NCBI GenBank assembly: GCA_958295495.1
Contig: OY282352.1
Location: forward strand, 3,224,548 to 3,288,547
Length of the DNA stretch: 64,000 nt
From: an uncultured Latescibacterota bacterium
Lineage (GTDB): Bacteria; Latescibacterota; UBA2968; UBA8231
Direction of reading: 5' to 3'
The position numbers and the translations under genes were made by a program. The notes below the pieces were generated by a model. It was given only the letters and a program-made list of their open reading frames with translations. It was not told the origin of the DNA and did no database searches. Position 1 is the stretch's first letter, and the number at the start of each line of letters is the position of its first letter. This document shows, in pieces, positions 2,493-19,831 of this stretch.

Positions 2493-4712
2493 TCAGATCC
2501 CTTTAGAGGCGATGGTGATGCGCACGATGTCGGCCACGGCCGGATAAGTGAACCCATCGTCCACCAAGCGCACCACGCCTCCTTCGTCCGCGCCGGTGTT
2601 GGCCCCGGCCTGCCGCGGCGCTTGGTTTTCGCCCACGCCCGGCTCCTCATTGACTTCGGTACCCGTATCCCACAGGCCGATCTGAGCGGTGATGTCGCCG
2701 CTTATGGGCTGGCCGTCGGTGAACAGGGCAATGCCGGTGTCGCCGGGGGCCAAGAACAGGTCGTTGGATTGCACGTACATGGTGGCGAAAGACAGCCGGT
2801 CGCCTGGCCGGGCAACGAAGGTGAACTCATAGGCGTTGTCCGGCGTCAGCGGTCCGGGGCTGTCGGCTCCCACCGGCGTGGTGAAAACCCCGCTGTTATT
2901 GGGGAGACCCGCGGCGAGTTGCGCTGGATTGCCGTCTTCGGCGAGTGCTTCGAGTCCCGCGCCGCGATCGGGCTGGCCGTCGGCGAAGAAGGGCGTCCCA
3001 CCGCGTTGGGCGACCCACGCGCCTGGCGCGAGGACGGTGCCGATGTTTTCGATTCGCACCGTGAATTGCGCTGCCACGCGCGGTTCAGGCAAGCCAGCGA
3101 CTGGATCGGAAGAGATGGTCCGCGCGGAAGAGATGGTCGTCTCAGAGCTATCGTCGCTGTCGTCACCTTCACCTTCACCTTCACCTTCACCTTCACCTTC
3201 GCCGTCCATATCACCTTCGCTGTCCATATCACCTTCGCTGTCCATATCACCTTCGCCGTCCATATCACCGTCTCCTTCGCCTTCTCCTTCCCCGTCCATA
3301 TCACCTTCGCCAGCGAGTGCCGCCGCCGCCGCGATGATAGCACTGATGTCGTAAGGCACCCCAACGGTAATGGTGCCGGTCACAGAGGGCTCAGCTCCAG
3401 ACAGATCGACCAGAAGGTCTAGCGATACCGCAATATCGAACGCACCGGAAGCGGTTACCTCGCCAGTTACCGGAATGCTCGGGAACTGATCTTCGCCCAC
3501 GTTCACGGTGCCGTTGAGCACCAGCAGCCCGTCGTCCGAATAATCCGTTAGCACCCACTCGTTGCCGGCGATGGCCAACGTGCCACTGCTGGCTCCGTCA
3601 ATGGTCGCCTCATCCGAGGTCAGCGCGACCAACAGGGCGTTCTGAAAATGGCTTATCAGCGTAGTGGTCAGGGATAGGATATCGGGTGTTATCACAGCCT
3701 CGGGCCCGGTTGGGCCTTCGCCTTCGCCTTCGCCTTCACCGTCGCCTTCACCGTCGCCTTCGCCCTCGCCTTCACCTTCGCCTTCGCCTTCGCCTTCACC
3801 GTCGCCGTCGCCCTCACCTTCCCCTTCCCCTTCGCCTTCGCCTTCACCGTCGCCTTCGCCTTCGCCTTCACCGTCGCCTTCGCCTTCGCCTTCACCGTCG
3901 CCTTCGCCCTCGCCCTCGCCCTCACCGTCGCCTTCGCCTTCCCCCTCCCCCTCACCTGCTTCTCCGCTCACGCCACCTTCAGAGGCGACGGTGATGCGCA
4001 CGATGTCGGCCACGGCCGGATAGGTGAACCCATCGTCCACCAAGCGCACCACGCCTCCTTCGTCCGCGCCGGTGTTGGCCCCGGCCTGCCGCGGCGCTTG
4101 GTTTTCGCCCACGCCCGGCTCCTCGTTGACTTCGGTACCCGTATCCCACAGGCCGATCTGAGCGGTGATGTCGCCGCTTATGGGCTGGCCGTCGGTGAAC
4201 AGGGCAATGCCGGTGTCGCCGGGGGCCAAGAACAGGTCGTTGGATTGCACGTACATGGTGGCGAAAGACAGCCGGTCGCCTGGCCGGGCAACGAAGGTGA
4301 ACTCATAGGCGTTGTCCGGCGTCAGCGGTCCGGGGCTGTCGGCTCCCACCGGCGTGGTGAAAACCCCGCTGTTATTGGGGAGACCCGCGGCGAGTTGCGC
4401 TGGATTGCCGTCCTCGGCGAGTGCTTCGAGTCCCGCGCCGCGATCGGGCTGACCGTCGGCGAAGAAGGGCGTCCCACCGCGTTGGGCGACCCACGCACCC
4501 GGCGCGAGGACGGTGCCGATGTTTTCGATTCGCACCGTGAATTGCGCTGCCACGCGCAGTTCAGGCAAGCCAGCAGTCGGCCCGGAAGAAACCGTCGACT
4601 TACCTGCTGGGCTAGATGGGGCTGCGGTGGATGACAGGGGATCTCGGTCTGCACAGGCGGTGAGCAAGACGGCCGCAGCACAGACGACGTAGAACAGGTA
4701 GAACAGTTTCAT
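2493..4712 (-). CDS. Lipoprotein with two spondin_N-like domains separated by acidic (GE/GD)n linkers and a central unknown domain
   Basis: 739 aa. The signal peptide with lipobox is MKLFYLFYVVCAAAVLLTAC, and GAGGAG lies 7 nt upstream of the ATG. Two ~195-aa domains carry the spondin_N-type block SFATMYVQSNDLFLAP. Confidence 0.8.
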   Translation of the reverse strand: MKLFYLFYVVCAAAVLLTACADRDPLSSTAAPSSPAGKSTVSSGPTAGLPELRVAAQFTVRIENIGTVLAPGAWVAQRGGTPFFADGQPDRGAGLEALAEDGNPAQLAAGLPNNSGVFTTPVGADSPGPLTPDNAYEFTFVARPGDRLSFATMYVQSNDLFLAPGDTGIALFTDGQPISGDITAQIGLWDTGTEVNEEPGVGENQAPRQAGANTGADEGGVVRLVDDGFTYPAVADIVRITVASEGGVSGEAGEGEGEGEGDGEGEGEGEGDGEGEGEGDGEGEGEGDGEGEGEGEGEGEGDGDGEGEGEGEGEGEGEGDGEGDGEGEGEGEGPTGPEAVITPDILSLTTTLISHFQNALLVALTSDEATIDGASSGTLAIAGNEWVLTDYSDDGLLVLNGTVNVGEDQFPSIPVTGEVTASGAFDIAVSLDLLVDLSGAEPSVTGTITVGVPYDISAIIAAAAALAGEGDMDGEGEGEGDGDMDGEGDMDSEGDMDSEGDMDGEGEGEGEGEGEGDDSDDSSETTISSARTISSDPVAGLPEPRVAAQFTVRIENIGTVLAPGAWVAQRGGTPFFADGQPDRGAGLEALAEDGNPAQLAAGLPNNSGVFTTPVGADSPGPLTPDNAYEFTFVARPGDRLSFATMYVQSNDLFLAPGDTGIALFTDGQPISGDITAQIGLWDTGTEVNEEPGVGENQAPRQAGANTGADEGGVVRLVDDGFTYPAVADIVRITIASKGI
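2505..3098. repeat. Intragenic direct repeat, copy A (encodes the C-terminal spondin_N domain)
   Basis: It aligns base-for-base with 3981-4574 (offset 1476 nt, in frame). I saw only about 7-8 mismatches by eye. Confidence 0.9.
3141..3312. repeat. Coding low-complexity tract (GEGD/GDMD repeats)
   Basis: The + strand reads CACCTTCACCTTC / CATATCACCTTCGC(T/C)GTC reiterated. On the - strand it translates to GEGDMDGEGEGEGDGDMDGEGDMDSEGDMDSEGDMDGEGEGEGEGEGEGDDSDD. Confidence 0.9.
3714..3960. repeat. Coding low-complexity tract ((GEGEGD)n, 6/18-nt periodicity)
   Basis: GCCTTCGCCTTCGCCTTCACCGTC units are reiterated over about 245 nt. On the - strand this gives a ~80-aa run of G/E/D only. Confidence 0.9.
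3981..4574. repeat. Intragenic direct repeat, copy B (encodes the N-terminal spondin_N domain)
   Basis: Near-identical to 2505-3098. Confidence 0.9.
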
Positions 4713-4797
4713 GAAAAATTCTCCTCGAAAAGGGTTGGTGGATTCCTATCCACAAAGATCACATAGAGTTGACATAATTTCAAGCCGCAATGTGCAA

Positions 4798-5934
4798 CTA
4801 AACCTGCGTCCACGCGCCGTTGTTCTTTGAGGATTCTACTGCGGCTGCGACGAATTTCATCCCGGCTACGCCCTCATCCACCCCCGGATGCGGAAAGGCC
4901 GCGGGCACATCCTGTTCGCCCCGGCGCGTGCGGATGCGCCGCTCGATGGTGGTGTGGAGGTTGGCGAGGGCCGGGAAGAAGTCCTCGTGGTGCCCCGAGG
5001 GCACGCGCAAGTACGAGGCGACCGACGCGGGCAGGTCGAATTCAGCACCAGTCCAGTAGGTAATGTCGCGGCCGTCGCCGTGGCGCACCAGCAGGCATTC
5101 GGCCCGCTCCTGATGCCATTCGATAGAGCCTTTGGTGCCGAAGACTTGGAAGCCGTTGTCGTTGCGGTAGCCAACCGCAATTTGCGTGGCCGTGATCAGG
5201 GCGGTGCCGCCGTTTTTTAGCTCGCCGATCGCGTTGAAGTCGTCGTCGAGCACGCGGCCTTCGACAAAGGTGTTGAGCCGCGCCGAGACCTGCTCGACGG
5301 CTAGCCCGGTCACCCAAGTTGCCGCGATAAAGGCGTGCGTACCGATGTCGCCGCCGCAATTGGAAATACCCGTGCGCTCGGGATCGGTGCGCCAAGACGC
5401 CTGCTGCTGGCCGGTCTGTTCCAGCGCCGTGGCCAGCCAGCCTTGGTTGTACCAGGAAACCACCTTGCGGACTTGGCCGATTTCGCCGCTTTGGATCATT
5501 TGCTTGGCCAGCATCATCATGGGATGGCCCGTATAGGTGTGGGCCAGCACAAAGGGCACCTGCTCGCGCTCGACGATCTGCGCCAAGTCTTCGGCTTCGG
5601 CGACCGTCATGGTAATGGGCTTTTCGCAGAGCACTGGGATGCCGGCCTGTAAAAAGGCTTTGGCTGGCTCGTAGTGGGCGAAGTTGGGGGTGACGATGGT
5701 GACGTAATCGAGGGCTTGCTCGCCGCTTTGCACCGCCTCTAACAGCGCTTGGTAGGTGGGATAACCTTGGATGCCGTAGTCGTCGGCAGCGCGCATCGCC
5801 GCCTCGGGGCTAGAGCGCAGCGCGCCGGCGACCAATTCGCGGCTGGCGTCGAGCGCGATGGCGCGATTGTGAACCATGCCGAAAAAAGAATCGGGGCCGC
5901 CGCCGCCGATCATGCCTACTTGGAGTTTGCTCAT
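4798..5934 (-). CDS. Gfo/Idh/MocA family NAD(P)-dependent oxidoreductase
   Basis: The N-terminal Rossmann motif is KLQVGMIGGGGPDSFFG, and the EKP motif (CEKPITMT) is present. ATG 5934 is preceded by GGAGA 7 nt upstream. Confidence 0.85.
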   Translation of the reverse strand: MSKLQVGMIGGGGPDSFFGMVHNRAIALDASRELVAGALRSSPEAAMRAADDYGIQGYPTYQALLEAVQSGEQALDYVTIVTPNFAHYEPAKAFLQAGIPVLCEKPITMTVAEAEDLAQIVEREQVPFVLAHTYTGHPMMMLAKQMIQSGEIGQVRKVVSWYNQGWLATALEQTGQQQASWRTDPERTGISNCGGDIGTHAFIAATWVTGLAVEQVSARLNTFVEGRVLDDDFNAIGELKNGGTALITATQIAVGYRNDNGFQVFGTKGSIEWHQERAECLLVRHGDGRDITYWTGAEFDLPASVASYLRVPSGHHEDFFPALANLHTTIERRIRTRRGEQDVPAAFPHPGVDEGVAGMKFVAAAVESSKNNGAWTQV

Positions 5935-6019
5935 GGAATTTTCTCCCAAAAATGTATTGTTGAAGTGCTCTATTTTAAGTACGCGTGGGGGCCTCTAACT
6001 GTCAAACGATGCGGCTGTC

Positions 6020-6754
6020 TCACGGCACTCGCATCACTGCCGTAGGGAGTCCCTGTTGCAGTTGGCTGGCGTCTAGGCCGCTGTTGAAGGCATAGCGTTT
6101 GTAATCCAACGCTAGCGACACATCGGCTTGGCGTATTTCCACTCGGCGCGGCAAGTAAAGTGCGTCCTCTCGGCGGTATTCCCTTAGCTCGCGGAGCAGG
6201 ACATCGCCCCCGGGCAGCGGGATGCTCTCGCGCAACACCAAGCCGCGACGCAGGTCCAGCCACGCCCGCCGCCCTCCCGGGAGCGCGACTACTGCTTGGT
6301 CGGCGTGCGGATACTCGACTGGCCCGGCTATGGAACCCGGCTCGACGAGGCCGAGCAAGGCGTAGCGAAGGTCGCATACCCCGAGGTCTAGCCCGGTCAG
6401 CGTGGTTAGCAGCCGGCCGCGCATCGGTCCTTTTAAGGGAGGATCCACGGCCCGGCCGTACACGGTCAAGCTGTCGCCTTCGAGTAGGGCCGTAAAAATG
6501 TGCGTGAAAAAGGGGCCGCGCACTTCGACGCGGAAGAGATCTGGATTGACTAGCTGCACGAGGGCCGTCCCCCGATCGCGCACCGCGCCGCGTCGCAGCT
6601 CAATGGCCGCTTCCGCCGTTAGATCTTCGAACTGGGCGAGGGACGCCGAGGCCGTGAGCAAGGCGGCCGGCCCTTGGTCTGCATCCCAACCCTCCCGCAC
6701 CACCAGCGGCGGCGCGCAAGCTAGTGCTAGGGCGCAGAGCGCGAACCACTTCAT
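6020..6754 (-). CDS. Lipoprotein, LolA/LolB-fold (DUF4292-like) candidate
   Basis: The internal start MKWFALCALALAC (lipobox ALAC) at 6754 overlaps the upstream TPR gene's stop (ATGA). The pairing of a TPR gene with a LolB-like lipoprotein is common in FCB-type genomes. Confidence 0.5.
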   Translation of the reverse strand: MKWFALCALALACAPPLVVREGWDADQGPAALLTASASLAQFEDLTAEAAIELRRGAVRDRGTALVQLVNPDLFRVEVRGPFFTHIFTALLEGDSLTVYGRAVDPPLKGPMRGRLLTTLTGLDLGVCDLRYALLGLVEPGSIAGPVEYPHADQAVVALPGGRRAWLDLRRGLVLRESIPLPGGDVLLRELREYRREDALYLPRRVEIRQADVSLALDYKRYAFNSGLDASQLQQGLPTAVMRVP

Positions 6755-8637
6755 GGCAGCAGCTTGCGCCGGACCTCTTCGTTGTCCGGCGCGAGTTCCA
6801 GCACCTTCTGCCAATGCGCGCGCGCCTCGTCCGTTTTGCCGAGGGCGCTGGCAATGTCGCCGGCGTGGTCGAAGATCACGGCCTGCTCCTCGGGGTCGCC
6901 CTCGTCCATCAGCTCCAAGGCTTGTTGCAGGTAGTGATCGGCCTGCGCTAGCTCGCCGAGGCGGAAATAGGCCCAGCCGATGCTATCGAGAAACGCGCTG
7001 TTGTCCGGCTCGAGCGCGATCGCCTTCTCCAAGAGCGCGACCGCTTCGGTCAGCAGCATGCCCTTGTCCGCGTACATGTAGCCGAGGTAGTTGAGCGCGT
7101 ACGCATCGTTTGGCTCGATCTCCAACAGGCGTTGGAAGGTCTCTATCGCACGGTCGAAGTACTCGTCGCGGTCAAGTTTGCGCGAAGCCTGCTCATAGCA
7201 AGAGCCGAGGTAAAAGAGCACGCGGCTCTCGTCGCTGGAAAGCGCAACGGCCTGCGTCAGCTTTTCAAGTGCCGCTTCCCAGCGCTCCAATTCCTCTAAG
7301 GCGATGCCCCAGTGCAAAAAGGCCGGGCTGTACGCGGAGTCGAGCGAGGCCGCTGTTTCGTATTGGGCCAGCGCGTCTTCCCACTGCCCCTGCCGCCCCA
7401 AGCTGATGCCCCATCGCACGTGCAGCGCGGCGTGGCCCGGGGACGCTGCGAGTGCTTGGCTATAGACGCCAATTGCCTCTTGCCAAGCGTCTTGTTGCTC
7501 TAGTGCGAGTCCCCAGTATAGGTATATCTCAACCGCGTCGGGCAGGTGCTCAAGGCCGCGCTGGTACACGGCGATGGCCTCGTCGTAGCGCTCGGTGCTC
7601 TCTAGGGCCGTCCCCCAGTACAAGTAAATCTCGCTGCTATCGGGCATGGCCTCTGCCGCTTGGCTGAGGACGGCGGTGGCGGAGTCGTAATCCTCCAAGT
7701 AGATGTAGTAGCGCGCTAGGTCGGTCCACTGCTCGACCGTTTGGGGCTGCATCTCGACGATGCGCTTAAAGACCAACGTCGCTTGGTCGTACTTTCCGGT
7801 TTCGGACAGGGCCACTCCCAAGTGGTAGAGCACTTCGGCACCCTCTTCGACGAGGATTTCCTCTAGGTCGTGCTCGGTGACCATCAGCCGCGCCAAGTGG
7901 TAGGGGACGCTGCTGTCGGGCAGATGGCCTGCGGCCTCTCGGTAAATGGCGATGGCTTCGTGGCGGTACCCCTGCGCCAACTTGAGCTCGGCTAGACCCA
8001 GCCAGGCGTCCTCGACTGTGGGATCGGCCGCGAGGACTTGGTGGTAGATGCGCTCGGCCTCTTGTTGCAGGCCGATGCGAGAAAAAATGCTGGCTATGTC
8101 CACCTCGACCTCTGACGGCACTTGCTCTTGGGCGAGTACCTCCTTAAAAAGCGAGGCGATTCGCTTGGTTTGGCCCGATTCAAAGTAGAGATAGGCCAAG
8201 TGGCGGTAGAGCGGCCAATTGTCCGGCTCGTAGCGCAGCAGCTCTTCGATGTGGCCGATGGCGTCCTCGCGCTCGCCTTCGCGCTCCAAGAGCCGAATCA
8301 GCAGGCGGCGCAACCGCACTTGGCTGCCGTCCAATGCCAAGCCCTTGCGCGCAAAGTGGGCGGCCATCTGGGCGTCGTCGATGCGCTGGTAGTTGTAAGC
8401 GAGGCGGGCGTAGATGGTGGGCGAGGTCGGGTCGAGGTCGGCCGCGCTGCGCAGGGCGACTATCGCGCCGAGGTAGTTGTGCTGGGCTTCAAAGACCTTG
8501 GCCTTGACGAAGTATCGCATGGCTCGGTCGGGCCCCGTCGGCTCTGCAGGCGCGTTGTGGCTCCGCAGGCCCGCGCAGCCGCCCGCTGCCAGCGCGAGGG
8601 CGCAGAACAGGGGGAGAAGGTGCGAGACGTTGTTCAT
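6751..8637 (-). CDS. Tetratricopeptide-repeat (TPR) protein, probable lipoprotein
   Basis: About 15 TPR-like units are visible (recurrent W/Y-x-G-x-A-y...P pattern). The likely start is MNNVSHLLPLFCALALAAGGC at 8637. Confidence 0.8.
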   Translation of the reverse strand: MNNVSHLLPLFCALALAAGGCAGLRSHNAPAEPTGPDRAMRYFVKAKVFEAQHNYLGAIVALRSAADLDPTSPTIYARLAYNYQRIDDAQMAAHFARKGLALDGSQVRLRRLLIRLLEREGEREDAIGHIEELLRYEPDNWPLYRHLAYLYFESGQTKRIASLFKEVLAQEQVPSEVEVDIASIFSRIGLQQEAERIYHQVLAADPTVEDAWLGLAELKLAQGYRHEAIAIYREAAGHLPDSSVPYHLARLMVTEHDLEEILVEEGAEVLYHLGVALSETGKYDQATLVFKRIVEMQPQTVEQWTDLARYYIYLEDYDSATAVLSQAAEAMPDSSEIYLYWGTALESTERYDEAIAVYQRGLEHLPDAVEIYLYWGLALEQQDAWQEAIGVYSQALAASPGHAALHVRWGISLGRQGQWEDALAQYETAASLDSAYSPAFLHWGIALEELERWEAALEKLTQAVALSSDESRVLFYLGSCYEQASRKLDRDEYFDRAIETFQRLLEIEPNDAYALNYLGYMYADKGMLLTEAVALLEKAIALEPDNSAFLDSIGWAYFRLGELAQADHYLQQALELMDEGDPEEQAVIFDHAGDIASALGKTDEARAHWQKVLELAPDNEEVRRKLLP

Positions 8638-8684
8638 AATTCTAAGGGGTCCACCTGTATTAGCGGGGTCCAAGAAGCCACGCA

Positions 8685-9308
8685 TTATGTCATTGCCTCG
8701 ACGAGGGCGTCGCGGAATTTCACAAAGCTATGAGAGCGATTGCAGTCCGGGTTGATGCGAGCGGCAATGGTACGCGCTATTTCTACCTTGCTTCGCCCGT
8801 TTTTGAAGTAGCCTTTTTTCTTTAAGAGACGCTCAAACGCCTCCCAAGTGCCGCCTTGTATCGCATCGGGATCGCGATATTTTGCTTGATTCGGAACGGT
8901 TGGCGATACCTTCGGATAGGCACGCCTCACCGCCTCCCAATCGCCGAAGTACCACGCTTCAAGCTCCTCAATTGCGATGCGGTTTACCACTTGCCAAGGA
9001 GTTTCCCTGGCCCCTGAACGAGTGCTTAACCCCGCTGCGGTCGCGGCCTCTTCGAGTTGCTGCTTGAGTTTATGGCAATCGTCGTTGTCGCAATCAACCA
9101 CTACGACGAGACGCATGTAGTTCGGCAGCCAAGAGGCATAGCCCTTTAGGCGATCCTGTAATTTATCCAACAGGTCTGATTTGCCCTGAAACGCATGAAC
9201 TTGAAAGAAGGGGCAGTCTTTGGGAAACAGACGCGGGAGCAATTCATGCAAGAATGCCTCCATAGAAGGCTCTTCGACCAAAATCTCCAGATGTGGATTC
9301 ACCATCAT
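8685..9308 (-). CDS. TOPRIM-like protein (DUF4276-type)
   Basis: 207 aa. An acidic first strand (LEILVEEPS) is followed by a hydrophobic strand with a DxD motif ([11 protein letters not shown]). Its ATG overlaps the TGA of the upstream ATPase (ATGA at 9305-9308). Confidence 0.7.
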
Positions 9309-10546
9309 TCACTTCCCGCAAGTGGTCTAGTGGCCCCGCCTTGGTTGACTAGTGGATCACCTACATTGAAGTGGCCCTCCATCCACAGGTGACCGAGCAG
9401 TGCGCCTTGGTCCATAAACGCACGCACACGCTCCATATTCTCGACGCATTGCGTTTGTGCGTAGCCTTGCTCGTCGCGCCAGAGAACGCGCACCTCTTTG
9501 GATTGTAAGGCGTTAAGGAAAAACGGCGAATGCGTGGTGACCAGTAGCTGAGTGCGCTCGCTGGCCGTGCGGCATTCCTCGGCCAGTTCCCAAAGCAGTC
9601 GGGGGTGGAGGAAGTTTTCCGGTTCCTCAATGCCGATAAAGGGCGGTGGGGTCGGATCGTGGAGGAGCACGAGGTAGGCCAGCATTTTTAAGGTGCCGTC
9701 GGAGGCGAATCGCGCCAGCACCGGGTGGCTGAACGGGGCGTCCTTGATTTGCAGTAACAGGCGGCCATCGGGCATGGTATCGGCCAGCACCTTTTCGATG
9801 CGCGGTACGCGCCGGCGCAGCACCTCAAAGATGCGCTCGAGACGCTCTGGATGCTGCTCGGCCAAGTATTGGATGACGTTGGCGAGGTTGTCGCCCGTTT
9901 TGCTTAGCTGCTCCTGCGGCCCGGTTTCGGGCTGGCCGCGTGCGCTGTCTGCCGAAAGATAGGACAGATGCCAGCCAGTAATGAACTGGCGCAGTGCCGC
10001 CACGCGTGGGTGATCGGCGAACTGTCCGAGGGCATTGACTGCCAACAGGTCGGGTGCGTTCAGGGGGATTTCTATCCGCTTGTCCCGTTCGTCTGGCTGA
10101 TCGCCGCTGATTGCTTGACCTTGGCCGTACTCGTATTGGAGAAACCGAAACGGCTTTCCGCGTTGGCCCCGTCGCCATTGCAACCACTCTTCTGCGACCA
10201 CTGGGGCGCGGTTGCGTTCAACAACAGCCAAGTGATAGGTAATGAGCGGCTGTCCCGGCTTTTCGCGGTACTTAATTTCAATTACTACCGGTCCCTTCTC
10301 TTCTCGGGACGCAAGCTCTTTGCCTCGCCCACGCTTATCCCAAGCGCGGCGCAGCCCCAACTCGAAACACTCTGCCAGAAAAGCAAATACGTCGAATACG
10401 GTGGACTTGCCGCTGCCGTTGGGGCCGAGCAACACCGTCAGCGGCGTCAGGTTTTTGAACTCGACACTCCGCAGGGCACGGAAATTCTGCACCTTCAGGT
10501 ATTCGATGCGTGCCGGGGCAGTGGGTTGTGCAGGAATTGGGTTCAT
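9305..10546 (-). CDS. ABC/SMC-type (AAA_15/AAA_21-like) ATPase, non-transporter
   Basis: Motifs present: Walker [10 protein letters not shown], signature-like SDGTLKML, Walker [14 protein letters not shown] and H-loop VTTHSP. ATG 10546 is preceded by AAGGAG (10554-10559, 7-nt spacer). The track's TTG start at 10573 is rejected. Confidence 0.85.
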
Positions 10547-10569
10547 CTGTGGTCTCCTTGGTGAGAAGC

Positions 10570-11415
10570 TCAAATTTTTGGATCCAAGGCGTCTCTAAGC
10601 CCGTCGCCAAAGAGGTTGAGCGCCAAGACGACCGCGAAGATGGCCAGCCCGGGAAAGGCCATGACCCAGGGCGCTTGCAAGAGCAACTCGCGTCCCCCGG
10701 ATAGCATGGCTCCCCACTCGGGGGTCGGCGGCTGGGCCCCCAAGCCCAAAAAGCTCAAGCCGGCCGCGTCGAGGATGGCCGTGCCCGAGCTGAGCGTGGC
10801 TTGCACGACGAGCGGGACTGTGCAATTAGGTAAGATGCTGTAGAACAGCAGCCGCGATTCGCTCGCCCCCAGCGCACGCGCAGCCTCGACGTACGTGGCT
10901 TCGCGCACGGTCAACACCGAGGAGCGCATGAGGCGGGCAAATTGCGGCACCAACACGATGCTGACGGCGAGAATGGCATTGTCGATGCCCGGCCCGATGA
11001 CGGCGACGATGGCAATGGCCAAGAGGATGCTGGGGAACGCCAACATCAGGTCCATCAGCCGCATGATGAGCATGTCGGCGACCCCGCCGCGATACCCGGC
11101 CACGAGCCCGAGCAAGGTGCCGGTGGAAGCGGCCAGCGCGATGGCGACCAGCCCAATCCGCAACGAGATGCGGGCGCCGTACACGATGCGGCTGAAAATG
11201 TCGCGGCCAAAGTCGTCCGTCCCCAGCCAATGGCTCGGCGACGGCGGCTGCAAGCGCAGATAGAGGTTTTGCGCCAGTGGATCGTATGGTGCCAAAAGCG
11301 GTGCCAAAAGCGCAGCTACAAACGCGCCCGCCAAGACCCCGCCGCCGATCAGCGCGAGGCGCTGTTTGCCGAGCCGCCGCAGTTGACTGGTGACGTGTGC
11401 AATCATCTCAAGCAT
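10570..11415 (-). CDS. ABC transporter permease, DppC/OppC-like (second permease of peptide/nickel systems)
   Basis: 281 aa. It has an N-terminal OppC_N-like LLAPYDP...[24 protein letters not shown] segment and the EAA-loop region [11 protein letters not shown]. Confidence 0.9.
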
Positions 11416-11523
11416 GGAAAATTAGCATCGCCCTACTTAGAGGCCCTAGCAAAAGGTTGGTCCACGCCTTTGGGCCTCAACGGCAAATACATCTCTGCGT
11501 TCATCTGCGGATAGGCTACTTTG

Positions 11524-13713
11524 TTAGGCACTCTTAGGCTCTAGGACCAACACACCCAGCGGCGGCAGGTGCAACCGCGCCGAATGCGGCCGGCCGTGGC
11601 AGGCGACGGCCTCGGTTGGCACCCAGCCGCCGTGGCCCACGCCGCTGCCGCCATAGACTTCGGCGTCGCTGTTGAGCACCTCGCGGTACGGCCCGGCGGC
11701 TGGCAGCCCGAGCCGGTAGTCCGCTCGGGGGACTGGGGTAAAATTGCAGACGAAGATCAGGGGGTTTTCGCCCGCGGCGCGGCGCGCAAAAGCCGAGATG
11801 CTCTGCGTAGAGTCCGAGCAGTCGATCCACTCAAAACCATCGGGGTATGCGTCGGTGCGGTGCAGGGCCGCGCACCGGCGATAGAGCCGGTTGAGATCGC
11901 CGAGCCAGCGATAGACGCCGCGGTGGGCCTCGTCGTCGAGCAGGTGCCAGGGCAGCGCGCCTTGGTGATCCCACTCTTCCCACTGGGCCAATTCGGCTCC
12001 CATAAACAGCAGCTTCTTGCCTGGGTGCCCGTACATAAAGCCGTAGAGCAAGCGCAAGTTGGCCAGTTGTTGCCAGGCGTCCCCGGGCATCTTGCTCAAG
12101 AGCGAGCGCTTGCCGTGTACTACCTCGTCGTGCGACAGGGGCAACACGAAGTTTTCGCAATAGGCGTAGAGCATGCCAAAGGTCAGGTCGGATTGGTGGT
12201 CGCGGCGGTGGATCGGATCGCGCTGCATGTAGCGCAGCACGTCGTTCATCCAGCCCATGTTCCACTTGAAGCCAAAGCCGAGTCCCCCGGCGTCGGCCGG
12301 TCGGGAAACCTCCGGCCAAGCAGTCGATTCCTCGGCGATCATCAAGGCCCCGGGGCAGTGCTCGCCGATAGCTGTGTTGAGCTGTTTGAGGAAGTCGATG
12401 GCTTCGAGGTTTTCGCGCCCGCCAAATTCGTTGGGCACCCATTCGCCTTCTAAGCGCGAGTAGTCGAGGTAGAGCATGGAAGCCACCGCATCGACCCGCA
12501 GGCCGTCGAGGTGAAAGCGCTCGAGCCAAAAAAGGGCGTTGGAAATGAGAAAGGAGCGGACTTCGGCGCGGCCGTAGTTGAATATACAAGTCTGCCAATC
12601 GGGATGCCGCCCTTGGCGCGGGTCGCGGTGCTCGTAGAGGCTGGTGCCGTCAAATTGAGCCAAGCCGTGGGCGTCGTTGGGGAAGTGCCCAGGCACCCAG
12701 TCGAGAATCACACCGATCGCGTGGCGGTGGCAATAGTCGATGAAATAAGCGAAGTCCTCAGGGGCACCAAAGCGCGCGCTCGGGGCAAAATATCCAGTCC
12801 CTTGATAGCCCCACGAGCCGTCGAAGGGATGCTCGGCCACTGGCATCAGCTCGATGTGGGTAAAGCCTAGCTCGGCCACGTGGGCGACCAATTGGTGAGC
12901 CAGCGTGCGGTAGTTGAGATAGGCATTGCCGTTGCGTCGCCAAGAGCCGAGATGCACCTCGTATATGGCGAGGGGGGCCTCTAGCCAGTTGCACGCCCGT
13001 CGCTCGGCCATCCACGCGCTGTCGCCCCAGGCGAACGCATCGCCTTGGCAGACTGCGGAAGCGGTGTGGGGCGGCCGTTCAGTTGCAAAGGCAAAGGGAT
13101 CGCTTTTGAGCAGCACGGTGCCGGCGCGGCTGAGGATTTCGTACTTGTAGAGTGCGCCCGCGCCCACCTCCGGGACGAACAGTTCCCAGACTCCGGCCGC
13201 CCCCAGCGGGCGCAGGCAGTGCCGCCGACCGTCCCAGCCGTTGAAATCGCCAACTACGCTGACCCTGCGGGCACTCGGTGCCCACACCGCGAAATACGTG
13301 CCCTCGGCCCCGTCGATGCAGCGCGGATGCGCCCCCAGCACCTCGTGGGCGCGGTAGTGGGTTCCTTCGTTGAAGAGGTATTGGTCTTGGGGCGCAAGCT
13401 GCGGCCAGAACGAGTACGGGTCGCGGCAGTAGCGAACTGCGCCCTGCGCGTCTGTCACCGCTAGATGATAGGCAAAGGGCTTGCTGCAGCCGGCGATCCG
13501 CGCCTCGAACAGCCCTTCGGCATGGATCTTGACCGCCGGAAAGCTCCCACCTTGCCCCCCCCGCTCCACGACCCGTACGCTCGTCGCATCGGGCAAGAAC
13601 GCGCGCACGACCCATCCGTCGTCTAAAGGGTGCATACCCAAGACTGAGAACACATCGGCGCATTCGCCGTGCAAAAGGGCCTCCATTGTCTGCGGCTCAA
13701 GCGTTGTCGGCAT
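11524..13713 (-). CDS. glgB: 1,4-alpha-glucan branching enzyme
   Basis: 729 aa. The GH13 branching-enzyme blocks are present: [28 protein letters not shown] and [12 protein letters not shown]. Confidence 0.95.
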
Positions 13714-13863
13714 GGTCGCACTCGTTCAGAGTTGAACATCTTTGAGAAGATAGGTCAATTTGGAGGAAAGGTATAGGGCGTCCACAGAGGATGCCCCGGC
13801 GGAGGGTTGGCTGAAGGGACGGCCCCCACGCCCCCATTGCCGATCCTTGGCGATCAAAGCAAG

Positions 13864-13897
13864 AGTACGCCCCAGCAGCGAAATGCCGGGGCGTACT
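13864..13897 (-). terminator. 10-bp GC-rich hairpin, possible terminator downstream of the Uma2 gene
   Basis: AGTACGCCCC (13864-13873) pairs with GGGGCGTACT (13888-13897) around a 14-nt loop. Only a weak T-tract (CTTGCTTTG) follows on the - strand. Confidence 0.35.
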
Positions 13898-14124
13898 TGC
13901 GAAACAAGTAAATCCAATTCCCAATCAGAAATTTACCGAAAACCGCCGCTGCGGCCGGCCCCCCCAGAACGCCTCCTCGCCAAGTCCCCAGATCAGCGCC
14001 GGCCGAAAATTTCGTTCAGATCGGTGCTGAAGCCGGCGAGTGTGGGCGAGGTCATGGTCTGCCCCTCGCCGTAGATGGCTACCGCCGCGAAGGCACCCGC
14101 ATGTAGCCGCAGCACTGCCACCGT

Positions 14125-14554
14125 CTAGGCGTCGGGATCGACCAGCCAGTACTCCTGCACGCCGTGCTTGGCGTACAGGGCGCGTTTGAGCGTCTGGTCC
14201 CGTCCGGCGGTGGCGGTGGACAGGATCTCGACGACCAAGTCCGGCGCCCCGAGCACATTCGCGCCGCCCAGCAGCAGGTGCGCTCGCTTGTGGGAGACGA
14301 ACAGCAGGTCCGGCTGCACCACATCCGCGTTCGACAGCACCACATCGCAGGGCGCGTGGAAGACCTCGCCCAAGTCTTTCTCCTGTACATAAAGTATGGA
14401 GCAGCGCTCCCAGCCGGGTGTCAATTCTCTGGTGCCCTAAGTTGGGCGCGGGGGCCACAATCAACTCTCCGTCCAACAACTCGTAGCGCTGGTCTTCTGG
14501 GGTGTGCCGGTAGTCCTCATAGGTGAACTTGACGACCGGGTTGGGGCTGGACAT
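14125..14554 (-). pseudogene. Uma2-family (DUF820) endonuclease, interrupted by one frameshift
   Basis: The N-terminal frame starts at ATG 14554 (AGGAGG upstream) and reads MSSPNPVVKFTYEDYRHTPEDQRYELLDGELIVAPAPNLGHQRI. The remainder, YVQEKDLGEVFHAPCDVVLS...VVQPDLLFV...PDLVVEILS...YAKHGVQEYWLVDP, lies in another frame. The switch is near 14393-14405. Confidence 0.8.
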
Positions 14555-14763
14555 GGCAACCCTCCTCTCGTCGCTCGATACGCGGGGTGCGAACTTTCTA
14601 GCAACCGAAAATAAAACAAAATAAACCTCGTCAATAGGGCGCGGGGAGGTACTGGGCGAGGAACGGCTCTTAAGAACCGCTGCGGTCAAAGAATAAATGG
14701 CCGTCAACAAAAAAGGAGATAGGTTATATTTTTAAGAGAAAAACCACCCGACCTAATTCGACT

Positions 14764-16092
14764 GTGGACAAAAAAATCGCCACCGCCGGCTGGGGGCTGT
14801 ACCCGCTCGTCGCCGCTTCGGTTCAGCGCGCGCGCTACCTAAGCGACCTCGGTTCCGCCGCGCCCCCGATTTTGCCCCAAGGCAATTGCCGCTCCTACGG
14901 CGACGCCTGCCTATACGAGCGCGTCGTCTCCACCCTGCCCCTCAAGCACCTGCTCGACTTCGATGGGCAGCGCGGGCTTTTGCGGGCGCAAGCCGGCATT
15001 ACCTTAGCGGAGATCATTCGCTTTGCCCTGCCCCGCGGCTTTTTCCCGCCGGTTACGCCGGGGACCAAGTTCCCCACGCTCGGCGGCTGCATTGCCGCGG
15101 ATGTCCACGGCAAAAACCACCACGCCGCAGGTTCCATCGCCGCCTTTGTCGAATCGCTGGACATGGTGTTGGCCGATGGCTCGCCAGTGCGCTGCTCGCG
15201 CAGCCAGTGCGCCGACCTGTTTTGGGCCACGCTCGGCGGCATGGGCTTGACGGGATTTATCTATGCGGCGACGCTGCGGCTGAAAAAGGTGTCGTCGGCT
15301 TATGTGCGGCAGCGCACCATCAAGACGGCGAGCTGGGCCGAGACCTGCCGCGTCTGCACGGAGACCCAGCATCAGTACACCTATTCGGTCGCTTGGATTG
15401 ACGGCCTGCAAACGGGCCGACACCTAGGCCGCGGCCACGTCCTGCTGGGGGAACACGCCAGCGCACGCGAGCTCGAGGGTAAGCCGCCCTTTCCCATCCA
15501 CGGCGATGGCCGCTGGGCCGTGCCGTTCTTCTTGCCCGGCGGCGTGCTCAATTCCAAGTCGCTGAAGGCGTTTAACGCTCTCTATTATCATCGCCAAGTG
15601 CGCCGCTCGACCGAGGCCCTCGTCCACTACGACCCGTACTTCTATCCGCTCGACTCCGTCCGCGGCTGGAACCGCCTGTACGGCCGCCGGGGCTTTTTGC
15701 AGTACCAGGTCGCCGTGCCCTACACCGATGGCGCAGAGGTAGTCGCCGACCTGCTCGGGCGCATCGCCCGCCGGGGGGTAGCTTCGCCTTTGGCCGTGCT
15801 CAAGACGTTTGGGCCGCCGAGCGAGGGCCTGCTTTCTTTTCCCATAGCAGGTTATACCCTCGCGTTGGACATACCCTTGCGCGACTTTGGGACGATTCCC
15901 TTCTTGCGCGCACTGAACAAAACCGTCGTCGAGGCCAAGGGCCGCGTCTATCTGGCCAAGGACGCCATTTTGGAAAGGGAGGATTTTGCCGCCATGTATC
16001 CGCAACTGGAAAAATTCAAAGCGGTCAAGCGCAAATACGACCCCGAGCGCCGCTTCCGCTCCTGTCTGTCCGACCGCTTGGGGATCACGTGA
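14764..16092 (+). CDS. FAD-binding (PCMH-type) oxidoreductase, DprE1-like
   Basis: 442 aa with a GTG start. It carries GNCRSYGD and FPPVTPGTKFPTLGGCIAADVHGKNHH blocks, typical of polyprenyl-phosphoribose 2'-oxidases. Its end overlaps the next gene by 4 nt. Confidence 0.7.
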   Translation: MDKKIATAGWGLYPLVAASVQRARYLSDLGSAAPPILPQGNCRSYGDACLYERVVSTLPLKHLLDFDGQRGLLRAQAGITLAEIIRFALPRGFFPPVTPGTKFPTLGGCIAADVHGKNHHAAGSIAAFVESLDMVLADGSPVRCSRSQCADLFWATLGGMGLTGFIYAATLRLKKVSSAYVRQRTIKTASWAETCRVCTETQHQYTYSVAWIDGLQTGRHLGRGHVLLGEHASARELEGKPPFPIHGDGRWAVPFFLPGGVLNSKSLKAFNALYYHRQVRRSTEALVHYDPYFYPLDSVRGWNRLYGRRGFLQYQVAVPYTDGAEVVADLLGRIARRGVASPLAVLKTFGPPSEGLLSFPIAGYTLALDIPLRDFGTIPFLRALNKTVVEAKGRVYLAKDAILEREDFAAMYPQLEKFKAVKRKYDPERRFRSCLSDRLGIT

Positions 16093-17912: not shown

Positions 17913-19100
17913 ATGATCCATACGACTATGTGGACCTATCCCTGGGACGTGATCGACGAGGGGGTGGACCGCGTCATCGGCTTCCTCAAGGAAGAAGTTG
18001 GGCTGGATGCGATCAGCCTATCCACGGTCTATCACACCTACGATGCACTACGCACCCATATACCCGGCAAAAAGCTCTTTTCCGGGTACGAGGACGCCAT
18101 CTACTTCCAGCCCCAGAGCGAGCTGTACCAAGGCACCAAGATCAAGCCGCACATCCATCCCATGGCCAAGGACCAAGATCCGGTGCGGATCATCGCCGAG
18201 GCCTGCCGGGTGCGCGGTTTGGAACTGATTTCGTGGACCGTGCCCCTCCACAACCACTACATGGCCAGACAGCATCCAGACTGCGCCCTGCTCGGCGTGT
18301 TCGGGGATCGCTATCCGGGCTGTCTGTGCCCGGCCAATCCCGAGGTGCGGGAGTACGTCCGAGGCTTGAGTTTGGACTTGGCCACCAACTGCGATGTGCA
18401 GATGATTGAGTACGAATCCCTCCACTACATGGGCTTTGGCATGTTCCGCAACCACGCCAAGGTGGGGGTTGATCTGGGAGCGGTAGGCTCGCTGTTGATG
18501 TCGCTGTGCTTTTGCGCTGGTTGTGCGCAGCGGGCCGCGGACCGGGGCATGGACGTGGGGGAGTTAAAGGGCCGGGTGGAAAAATGGCTCCTCAACATTT
18601 TTGAGGCGGGGCCGCCGGAGCGCAGCGCGGAAGAATTCGTCGCCGACGAGCCTTTGGTATGCGAGTACCTAAAGATGCGGGCGGATACTGTGACGTCGCT
18701 GGCCACACAGGTGAAAGAGGCCGTAAAAAAGCCCATTTCTTTTTTGTACATGGGCAATTATTACAACAACGGCATCGACCGCGAACCCATTGAAAAGATC
18801 GTCGATCGGATCAATGTCCTGTGCTACAGCGGCTCGCCAAAGGAGGCCGGCCAAACGGCGCAGGAGACCCTAGCCGGCATGGCCGATCCCTCTATGTTGA
18901 TCTGCGGTCTGAACGGCCACCGACCCATAGACAGCGCCCAACAGATGCGAGATATCATCTCCGCGGTCTATGAAACGGGTGTGCGCCGGTTCTCGTATTA
19001 CAATTACGGTATGATTTCTCGGCGCAATCTCAGGTGGATTGCCGCGGCCATTGCCGCGGTGCGCGCCCTCGACGCCGGCCTTTTGCCCCCGACGGCTTAA
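17913..19100 (+). CDS. Hypothetical TIM-barrel protein, glycoside-hydrolase-like (GHL10-like?)
   Basis: 395 aa, starting 2 nt after the CHAD stop. It has an alternating beta/alpha pattern and a CPANPEVREYV...IEYESLHY block reminiscent of GH-like families. No confident family call. Confidence 0.35.
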   Translation: MIHTTMWTYPWDVIDEGVDRVIGFLKEEVGLDAISLSTVYHTYDALRTHIPGKKLFSGYEDAIYFQPQSELYQGTKIKPHIHPMAKDQDPVRIIAEACRVRGLELISWTVPLHNHYMARQHPDCALLGVFGDRYPGCLCPANPEVREYVRGLSLDLATNCDVQMIEYESLHYMGFGMFRNHAKVGVDLGAVGSLLMSLCFCAGCAQRAADRGMDVGELKGRVEKWLLNIFEAGPPERSAEEFVADEPLVCEYLKMRADTVTSLATQVKEAVKKPISFLYMGNYYNNGIDREPIEKIVDRINVLCYSGSPKEAGQTAQETLAGMADPSMLICGLNGHRPIDSAQQMRDIISAVYETGVRRFSYYNYGMISRRNLRWIAAAIAAVRALDAGLLPPTA

Positions 19101-19831
19101 ACTGCTTGAATTTCTATCCATTCACGACGTTTCTGCAACGCTTCTTCCAACTGAGAGGAAAGACAGTATTTTCCAATAGATTTTAATTGATCTGGTAGTT
19201 CAGGACGGGATGCGGGATAAATGCCTGACCTGATTAAATATGCACGGGCCCTTTGTGTCAACATCGTAATGTATTGTTCTTGAGCAGCATCCTCGTCACC
19301 AATCACTTTAAGATCCTCAAAAAGCTGCTTCGCTCTTTCTGCACGTTTATCCGCTATTCTTGCAGAAGGCAAAGGAAGACGATCTTTCCATTTATCACAT
19401 AAGTTAGTCCAATATTTATTTTTTTCGTAAAGAATTTTTCCAAAACGAATCGTCCAAGCTAGAAGTTCATGTTTCTCTAAAATAAGAGATTCTATGTCCT
19501 CTCGACGATATGAGCGAATATCGACATCAAGGGGTGGAAGTACAAAGTTCGGCCTGTCATTCTCATAGATAATCAGTAGGTCAACATCAATGCTATATTT
19601 GACCTGCTGACGAGTAATGGAACCGAAAATCACAATTGTCCAAATGTCGGGTTGCTTATGCAACGTTTGTACAAAATTCTCGACCCATTTTTTTGCATGG
19701 GGACTGGGCCATTTATTAATCGTTTCGAGAACGTCAAATAAGTTCATGTTCTCGGGGCTATTGTTCATCAGATAGTTGCTCATTTGACTCATCTCCCAAT
19801 AACGCAGAAACTGCTTCCACATATTCTTCAA
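19097..19831 (-). CDS. Nucleotidyltransferase (MNT/pol-beta superfamily) with helical C-terminal domain
   Basis: The NTase motif is IFGSITRQQVKYSIDVDLLI (GS...DxD). The gene is AT-rich. The true start is probably an internal Met (19768 or 19747), because the first ~21 codons overlap the upstream HEPN gene. Confidence 0.7.
   Translation of the reverse strand: MKNMWKQFLRYWEMSQMSNYLMNNSPENMNLFDVLETINKWPSPHAKKWVENFVQTLHKQPDIWTIVIFGSITRQQVKYSIDVDLLIIYENDRPNFVLPPLDVDIRSYRREDIESLILEKHELLAWTIRFGKILYEKNKYWTNLCDKWKDRLPLPSARIADKRAERAKQLFEDLKVIGDEDAAQEQYITMLTQRARAYLIRSGIYPASRPELPDQLKSIGKYCLSSQLEEALQKRREWIEIQAV

Follow-up and report, generated by a model that had tools for sequence, protein, structure and literature searches.

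A HEC-01-type pair of an OLD-like ABC ATPase and a DUF4276 TOPRIM protein: a candidate defence module inserted into a housekeeping gene string of Latescibacterota

Two adjacent genes at positions 8685–10546, on the minus strand of a 64-kb stretch of Latescibacterota DNA (contig OY282352.1; hereinafter the window, meaning the whole stretch analyzed), code for an ATP-binding cassette (ABC) ATPase of 413 amino acids (9305–10546) and a DUF4276 protein of 207 amino acids (8685–9308). From their sequences, the pair can be identified with very high confidence as HEC-01, the 'Hma-embedded candidate' of PADLOC, which was described as an ABC ATPase with a TOPRIM protein bearing an OLD-like metal site (Payne et al., 10.1101/2024.01.29.577857). 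By analogy with better-studied systems, we posit, with a probability of roughly 70%, that it is an OLD-like defence module in which an ABC ATPase operates with a separate small DUF4276 TOPRIM nuclease, broadly in the manner proposed below. The initial annotation of this DNA was aware of no experimental characterization of the arrangement of an ATPase with DUF4276; it is in fact a published system for which phage assays exist (10.1101/2024.01.29.577857, PMC12881386). HEC-01 is already catalogued and partly tested, and the window cassette adds no new category.

The identification is carried by profile matches that run almost end to end in both proteins. The ATPase matches the HEC-01A model PDLC04182 at 2.1e-160 (532 bits, residues 12–397 on profile positions 2–404 of 406) and the small protein matches the HEC-01B model PDLC04202 at 4.3e-86 (286 bits, residues 6–205 on profile positions 2–200 of 204); as in HEC-01, the same two families are adjacent, in the same order and on one strand. 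In Pfam, the ATPase is recognized by AAA_21 (6.5e-30) and AAA_15 (1.6e-16) and the small protein by DUF4276 (4.1e-32, 112 bits against a cut-off of 30.2, profile positions 1–191 of 192), so that the profile searches suggested in the initial annotation recovered AAA_21, AAA_15, DUF4276 and both halves of HEC-01. Some of the HEC-01 models carry swapped A and B labels: PDLC04144 is named HEC-01B but fits the ATPase (1.1e-121), and PDLC04143 is named HEC-01A but fits the DUF4276 protein (8.6e-30).

For comparison, related loci were collected by scanning representative genomes (one per species) of 185,579 species with two peptide patterns, by which at least 538 loci were confirmed; the best 80 of these form the set on which the counts of pairing, gene overlap and residue invariance are based. 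Invariance of the ATPase motifs was scored in 37 homologues and that of the small-protein residues in the 80 loci and also in 41 clusters. The features of the cassette are as follows:

9305–10546, minus strand: HEC-01A-type ABC (OLD/Septu-like) ATPase, 413 amino acids (open reading frame, Pfam, PADLOC, AlphaFold2, Foldseek)
10554–10559, minus strand: Shine-Dalgarno sequence AAGGAG, 7 nucleotides 5′ of the ATPase ATG, inside the 23-nucleotide spacer after the dppC stop
10400–10426, minus strand: Walker A GPNGSGKST, residues 41–49 (G41–T49 invariant)
9680–9703, minus strand: ABC signature-like SDGTLKML, residues 282–289 (S282, D283, G284, T285, L286, K287 invariant)
9602–9640, minus strand: Walker B/D-loop region, residues 303–315 (F303, I304, G305, E307, E308, P309, E310, N311 invariant)
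9524–9538, minus strand: H-loop TTHSP, residues 337–341 (T337–P341 invariant)
9305–9308, minus strand: ATGA stop/start overlap of the two genes
8685–9308, minus strand: HEC-01B-type DUF4276 protein, 207 amino acids (Pfam, PADLOC, AlphaFold2, Foldseek)
9270–9275, minus strand: E12-E13 directly after strand β-1, the predicted TOPRIM catalytic glutamate position (E12 invariant in the 80 loci)
9087–9095, minus strand: D72-C-D74 at the end of strand β-3, the predicted TOPRIM DxD motif (D72, D74 invariant in the 80 loci)
8958–8966, minus strand: E115-L-E117 after strand β-4, followed by the family signature AWYFGDW (E115, E117, W119, F121, G122, W124 invariant in the 80 loci)

The small protein is predicted to be a metal-dependent nuclease of the TOPRIM fold, which we take as the effector of the pair. 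DUF4276 has been placed in the Toprim superfamily as a relative of Mad4 of the MADS system (PMC12065111). The AlphaFold2 model of the window protein (pLDDT score 85; predicted template modeling score, pTM, 0.84) displays alternating β and α elements, with strands at residues 6–11, 34–39, 65–72 and 107–113, and its sole significant PDB match in Foldseek is 6NJX, the TOPRIM-containing C-terminal region of the Xanthomonas campestris OLD protein (E 2.4e-5, probability 1.0). Judged by position along the strands, the model has the three-layer α/β layout of TOPRIM domains, with E12 coming after β-1 and D72-x-D74 ending β-3. The acidic first strand (LEILVEEPS) and the DxD strand that the initial annotation had read by eye are thus both present, and its assignment of DUF4276 to the TOPRIM fold, for which it had proposed a structural check, is borne out by the Pfam and 6NJX matches. 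E12 and E13 are, moreover, both invariant in the 41 clusters. A DUF4276 sequence-profile search of PDB chains returned nothing below an E of 0.2; hence, the link of the small protein to OLD is visible by fold comparison only. In the viral structure library, no entry matches the model at E 1e-3, the best full-length one being an RloB-like phage protein (probability 0.99).

The ATPase matches other PADLOC systems far more weakly than HEC-01, namely AriA (2.3e-29 and 1.1e-19), mad3 (4e-25), AbiLi (5.5e-22) and PtuA (1e-17). NCBIfam offers no equivalog for it, MAD3 (NF047739) scoring 110.6 bits against a cut-off of 420. Its AlphaFold2 model reaches a pTM of 0.77, with a helical insert (about residues 194–281) of low confidence, and finds the class 1 OLD nuclease 6P74 from Thermus scotoductus as its closest neighbor in Foldseek, followed by PtuA, retron PtuA, GajA and the RecN heads. 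By sequence, the only solved relatives are PtuA and 6P74, both weak. The Walker A, SDGTLKML, Walker B and TTHSP motifs noticed earlier are all in place, their core residues being invariant or nearly so. The start at ATG 10546 with AAGGAG 7 nucleotides upstream was likewise read correctly, and the start, the GGAG and the spacer are kept in six syntenic relatives; a longer open reading frame from TTG 10573 is not needed. One ATPase homologue, P0189, is 81% identical to the window protein and has 596 amino acids as against about 413. The precomputed Pfam list for it holds ATPase domains only; its extra length could stem from an N-terminal extension or from a fusion, which, if made with the nuclease, would restore the one-chain layout of OLD.

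The two genes form a tight unit. An ATPase homologue (62–91% identical) lies immediately upstream of the DUF4276 gene in all 80 loci, and the pairwise distances of the two proteins correlate (mirror-tree r=0.59, Mantel p=0.001): the two genes co-evolve as an obligate pair. The ATGA overlap at 9305–9308, already pointed out in the initial annotation, implies, as read from the sequence, translational coupling of the two genes. An overlap of −4 is found in 44 of the 80 loci and one of −1 in 13, or 57 together, which makes the overlap a conserved feature rather than a product of chance.

The family is large and widely distributed. In a 90%-identity collection, the small protein has 5234 homologous clusters, the best 120 of which are all at least 62% identical to it. 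For the ATPase, a search gave at least 8000 homologues at E <= 0.001, the 120 best listed being all at least 77% identical. In a 50%-identity library, the DUF4276 superfamily comprises 1360 clusters at E <= 1e-3, of which 195 reach E <= 1e-30. The best 80 loci, with identities of 56–91%, span more than 10 phyla and one archaeon, their hosts including Latescibacterota, Binatia, Alpha- and Gammaproteobacteria, Chloroflexota, Acidobacteriota, Planctomycetota, Cyanobacteria, Spirochaetia, Thermodesulfobacteriota and a Methanosarcina. The GC content of the cassette follows that of the host only in part (slope 0.54, r=0.73) and is below that of the flanks in 58 of 76 loci. The copy in Methanosarcina sp. 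DH2 (L080, 6796–8609) deviates the other way, with 54.4% GC versus 40.1% in its flanks, 14 points higher, and its ATPase is 76% identical to that of the window; it is a very recent-looking inter-domain transfer. This partial tracking of host GC, together with an identity of over 75% between the ATPases of a bacterium and an archaeon, shows that horizontal transfer is frequent and partly recent.

In Latescibacterota, filled and empty sites can be compared directly. The gene order of the window, all on one strand, is glgB, dppC, the ATPase, DUF4276, a gene for a TPR protein and one for a 244/264-amino-acid protein. At the protein level, the window is about 99% identical to the locus L001, the closest named genomes being metagenome-assembled genomes of Candidatus Latescibacterota, and the same order recurs in six other Latescibacterota species genomes (L002–L007) and in the metagenome contig L090. 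A sister lineage (L082–L089) has an empty site, with dppC followed directly, after about 6–25 nucleotides, by the TPR gene and no cassette; its DppC is 85–88%, its TPR protein about 70% and its GlgB about 72% identical to those of the window. Accordingly, the cassette is an insertion of about 1.9 kb into a very short dppC/TPR operon spacer. In the filled site, it is separated by 23 nucleotides from dppC and by 47 nucleotides from the TPR gene, both intact. The genes at its boundaries are:

10570–11415, minus strand: dppC/oppC-type ABC permease gene, 5′ insertion boundary and host context (Pfam OppC_N and BPD_transp_1)
6751–8637, minus strand: TPR lipoprotein-like gene, 3′ insertion boundary and host context (conserved start ATG 8637)

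No conserved terminal repeats or att-like sequences were found by blastn-short in the 250 nucleotides on either side, DNA being shared only between related taxa or co-transferred restriction-modification loci, and no mobility gene accompanies the window cassette. The cassette has 57.0% GC compared to 62.0% in its flanks, which confirms the earlier impression that it is AT-richer, and the GC content at third codon positions (GC3) of its two genes is 0.58 and 0.67 compared to 0.78–0.82 in the neighboring genes. A sigma-70 consensus scan, which may not suit Latescibacterota, found no promoter between dppC and the cassette and none in 6000–14200; terminator-like sites are likewise absent between dppC and the cassette, and in the scan they are no commoner than in shuffled sequence. 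Most likely, the cassette is read through from the glgB–dppC transcript.

Over the seven syntenic genomes, each of a different species, the ratio of nonsynonymous to synonymous substitution rates (dN/dS) is 0.10 for the ATPase, 0.23 for DUF4276 and 0.09–0.18 for the flanking genes, with similar mean dS. Both cassette genes have therefore been kept by purifying selection since insertion. The small protein evolves fastest, with 75–80% identity as against 88–91% for the ATPase. In the window lineage alone, the dS of the cassette is about twice that of the flanks, which could be due to weaker codon bias or to some allelic exchange.

A defence setting becomes visible in a subset of the related loci. 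When four genes on each side were clustered, two recurrent neighbor families emerged, one on the upstream and the other on the downstream side, each in 10 loci, and Pfam identifies these recurrent neighbors as HsdS and HsdR, with HsdM lying farther upstream. By tblastn, components of type I restriction-modification (R-M) systems lie within 8 kb in 14 of the 74 independent (non-syntenic) loci, and at least two components in 8 of them, typically in the order hsdM-hsdS-[cassette]-hsdR. PADLOC matches among the immediate neighbors include Specificity_I (7), MTase_I (6) and mad5 (5). The cassette-adjacent HsdR proteins are 74–95% identical across Alphaproteobacteria, Longimicrobiales, Thermoanaerobaculia and Chloroflexota (L015, L032, L050, L065, L073, L077; at about 8600–15600 in each). 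At such identity, whole type I R-M operons, embedded cassette included, seem to pass from phylum to phylum in one piece, and these sequences suggest that operon and cassette sometimes travel together. Three loci have, immediately upstream of the HEC-01 pair, a second and distantly related AAA_21/AAA_15 ATPase gene (L012:5333–6361; L036, about 4146–5117; L050, about 4899–5882), whose identity is about 24–26% along most of the length and which may represent another stacked ATPase-based system. In a locus from Chloroflexota (L056:8664–9632), a DppC-like permease 54% identical to that of the window lies directly downstream of an independently located cassette; this second association with a dppC-type gene is probably coincidence.

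Taking PARIS, OLD/Gabija and Septu as analogues, we propose the following mechanism for such a module. The ATPase would oligomerize through its head domains and helical insert and hold the nuclease in an inactive state. The trigger would come from a phage and could be a protein, for instance an anti-restriction factor, or else a nucleic acid of aberrant form; it would shift the ATP-dependent state of the ATPase, and this change would release or activate the TOPRIM subunit. The latter would then cut nucleic acid by two-metal catalysis, as OLD TOPRIM domains do (review PMC10568477), the substrate being potentially either DNA, the target of OLD and GajA, or tRNA, that of AriB. Phage replication might thereby be stopped directly or by abortive infection. 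In line with a role in defence, a HEC-01 from a cold-seep metagenome protected Escherichia coli B against at least one of the phages T4, T5 and T7 (PMC12881386).

Several observations weigh against this interpretation. The HEC-01 homologue of Payne et al. gave no protection from any phage used in MG1655 ΔRM (10.1101/2024.01.29.577857), and the published phage assays concern homologues other than the window pair or its close subfamily. The ATPase, 62–91% identical across phyla, is unusually conserved for a defence gene. About 80% of the related loci have ordinary neighbors, such as genes for ribonucleotide reductase, a tRNA synthetase or an amidase. The window itself is no defence island, with PADLOC yielding only generic matches and one Uma2/PDC-S03 open reading frame among its 46 other proteins. 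Nor was the family found on phages: tblastn gave no match in 50,697 phage records, none was confirmed in IMG/VR, and only 7 of 72,556 plasmid records carry the family, only one of these being close, by which carriage by phages or satellites in the manner of PARIS was rejected. Finally, the helical insert, the presumed sensor or scaffold, is modeled with low confidence, and we infer the trigger, the substrate and the stoichiometry by analogy only.

Some of these observations would fit a cellular role outside defence, in which the ATPase and the nuclease serve DNA or RNA maintenance, much as the archaeal OLD-family ATPase Cran1 acts in cell-cycle progression. We regard this as unlikely, albeit as the foremost of the alternatives. 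It draws on the very high conservation across phyla, on purifying selection and vertical retention over seven species in an ordinary glgB-dppC-TPR string, on a window without a defence island, on the absence from phages and rarity on plasmids, on the one HEC-01 negative in phage assays (10.1101/2024.01.29.577857), and on the archaeal precedent for a non-defence member of the OLD family (PMC12796447). It is at odds with the patchy distribution over at least 538 loci among the representative genomes scanned, the empty site of the sister lineage, the transfer between phyla and domains with compositional mismatch, the repeated embedding between hsdS and hsdR, and the one HEC-01 positive in a phage assay (PMC12881386). 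Defence sensors usually diversify quickly. A related idea, likewise unlikely, is that this ultra-conserved HEC-01 clade is not a conventional phage-specific sensor, being instead a module that watches something invariant in the host, guarding type I restriction enzymes or translation in the manner of PrrC, or a domesticated cellular ATPase-nuclease like Cran1; this would fit the high conservation, the promoterless insertion into an operon spacer and the long vertical retention without a defence island.

Doubtful to a further degree is a selfish, toxin-antitoxin-like addiction cassette, in which the ATPase would restrain a TOPRIM nuclease toxin and the pair would persist and spread through the harm done by losing it, not by defending the host. 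The cassette is compact, consists of two translationally coupled genes and lacks mobility genes; these traits, rampant horizontal transfer and persistence in a non-defence context are all compatible with this idea, and Pfam annotates AAA_21 as 'putative AbiEii toxin, Type IV TA system'. Nevertheless, many abortive-infection systems have exactly the same architecture, and the addiction and defence readings consequently overlap; furthermore, the gene sizes and the ABC ATPase fold match the sensors of OLD, PARIS and Septu rather than classical antitoxins, and embedding within operons for type I R-M typifies defence cargo. We give practically no credence to the ATPase being the nucleotide-binding subunit of the neighboring Dpp/Opp-type peptide ABC transporter, a role that might be suggested by its place immediately downstream of dppC, in the same orientation and after a spacer of 23 nucleotides, and by its Walker A, Walker B, signature and H-loop motifs. 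The Pfam model ABC_tran (PF00005) reaches only 18.4 bits against a cut-off of 25 and covers just residues 36–56 around the Walker A motif, no NCBIfam transporter ATPase model exceeds 20 bits although all their cut-offs lie above 190, the structural neighbors are OLD, PtuA, GajA and RecN, and the pairing with DUF4276 holds in 80 of 80 loci whatever the neighbors. The empty-site relatives, with dppC directly followed by the TPR gene and no ATPase, also dispose of the earlier notion that the cassette occupies the slot of the transporter's ATPase genes. The sub-cut-off ABC_tran score, the OLD-type fold and these relatives effectively refute a transporter subunit, in agreement with the initial annotation, which had not taken the ATPase for one.

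With the defence module as the preferred interpretation, the window locus, which PADLOC would already label HEC-01, is of value as a clean natural example of a candidate system whose function is disputed. Comparison of its filled and empty sites limits the mobile unit to the two genes alone, and purifying selection over seven species shows this unit to be functional. Its highly identical copies in two domains and the recurrent hsdS-[cassette]-hsdR embedding hint at the trigger: the module may sense anti-restriction proteins or back up type I R-M. The invariant E12, D72, D74, E115 and E117, together with the ATPase motifs, are targets for mutagenesis.

Some observations concern the surroundings of the cassette. 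An apparent TAATG coupling of the small gene to a 644-amino-acid TPR open reading frame (ATG 8685) was rejected as a longest-frame artefact: among the six syntenic relatives, five (L003–L007) have the extension in another frame or broken by stop codons. The true TPR start is the conserved ATG 8637, from which MNNVSHLLPLFCALALAAGGC (MNNVSH...GGC), a lipoprotein-type signal, is encoded. Genes for a solute-binding protein and a dppB-like permease lie at 27–1448 on the plus strand, about 9 kb from the lone dppC (10570–11415, minus strand) behind glgB; no dppD/F ATPase genes were found near this set or near dppC. The Uma2-family endonuclease-like gene (minus strand), which matches the PADLOC candidate PDC-S03 at 2.3e-22, appears to be split over two frames, with its N-terminal part in the open reading frame 13925–14710 and its core in 14125–14424. 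L001 has a 126-amino-acid Uma2 gene called at the matching position, and the split points to a frameshift, to a pseudogene or to an error of assembly. Between glgB and dppC, the empty-site relatives carry an additional gene of about 1.1 kb (L085:4885–6000 and equivalents in L086–L089), which is absent from the window's lineage; by eye, it looks like a cyclic-nucleotide-binding domain with a response-regulator receiver. The 244-amino-acid open reading frame at 19097–19831 (minus strand) has a GC3 of 0.38 against a window gene average of about 0.7 and no PADLOC match; it may be foreign or not a real gene.

Among the known systems, ABC ATPases with TOPRIM partners form a recognized set, in which MADS3-4, AbiL and PARIS have been grouped (PMC11464382). 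In MADS, Mad3 is an AAA_15/21 ABC ATPase and Mad4 a DUF4276 homologue (PMC12065111, PMC11464382), and deletion of mad3 or mad4 weakens defence (10.1101/2023.03.30.534895). However, MADS is an eight-gene system with a methyltransferase, whereas the window pair has two genes; besides the sub-cut-off MAD3 score, the small protein has no PADLOC mad4 match, and no mad models, including the mandatory mad6-8, were matched by the 46 other window proteins. PARIS likewise combines an AAA_15/21 ABC ATPase (AriA) with a separate TOPRIM nuclease (AriB), usually translationally coupled, and is the best mechanistic model, with a scaffold that releases the nuclease upon sensing a phage protein (PMC11464382). 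It differs in its effector, a DUF4435 protein of about 300 amino acids as opposed to the 207-amino-acid DUF4276 protein, and in being common in phages and satellites, unlike the window family, which was not found in phage or viral collections. The 207-amino-acid protein has no AriB or DUF4435 match in PADLOC or Pfam, and the AriA models match the ATPase only where its segments are generic to AAA_21/AAA_15, with scores far short of that for HEC-01A; since AriB is lacking, the resemblance to PARIS is architectural only. Of the split-OLD or PARIS-like label given initially, the OLD-like ATPase with a DUF4276/TOPRIM partner thus stands and PARIS does not.

The OLD family (class 1 P2 Old and TsOLD; class 2 GajA, BpOLD and XccOLD) provides the closest solved folds for both proteins, 6P74 and 6NJX, with a common Glu and DxD metal-binding layout. 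In OLD, the ATPase is fused to the TOPRIM domain in one polypeptide, while the window pair and all 80 relatives have two open reading frames; neither window protein matches Toprim_OLD of Pfam at E <= 0.1, and identity to OLD is only 16–17%. For Gabija, no GajB (UvrD-like) partner is at hand, the neighbors in the window being dppC and the TPR lipoprotein gene, and the cassette itself contains no helicase. AbiL (AbiLi/AbiLii) and RloA/RloB also unite an ABC ATPase with a small partner of the TOPRIM superfamily, and modules of the RloB type likewise sit inside type I R-M operons; as noted, it is also an RloB-like phage protein that the small-protein model matches best over its full length among viral structures. 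Their Pfam families differ from those of the window pair, however, with only the AbiLi match given above for the ATPase and no AbiLii or RloB sequence match. The closest relative thus remains HEC-01 itself, which later surveys still list as a candidate (PMC12853721). PADLOC defined it from copies embedded in Hma systems, whereas the embedded relatives of the window cassette sit in type I R-M operons and the window copy stands alone in a housekeeping gene string.

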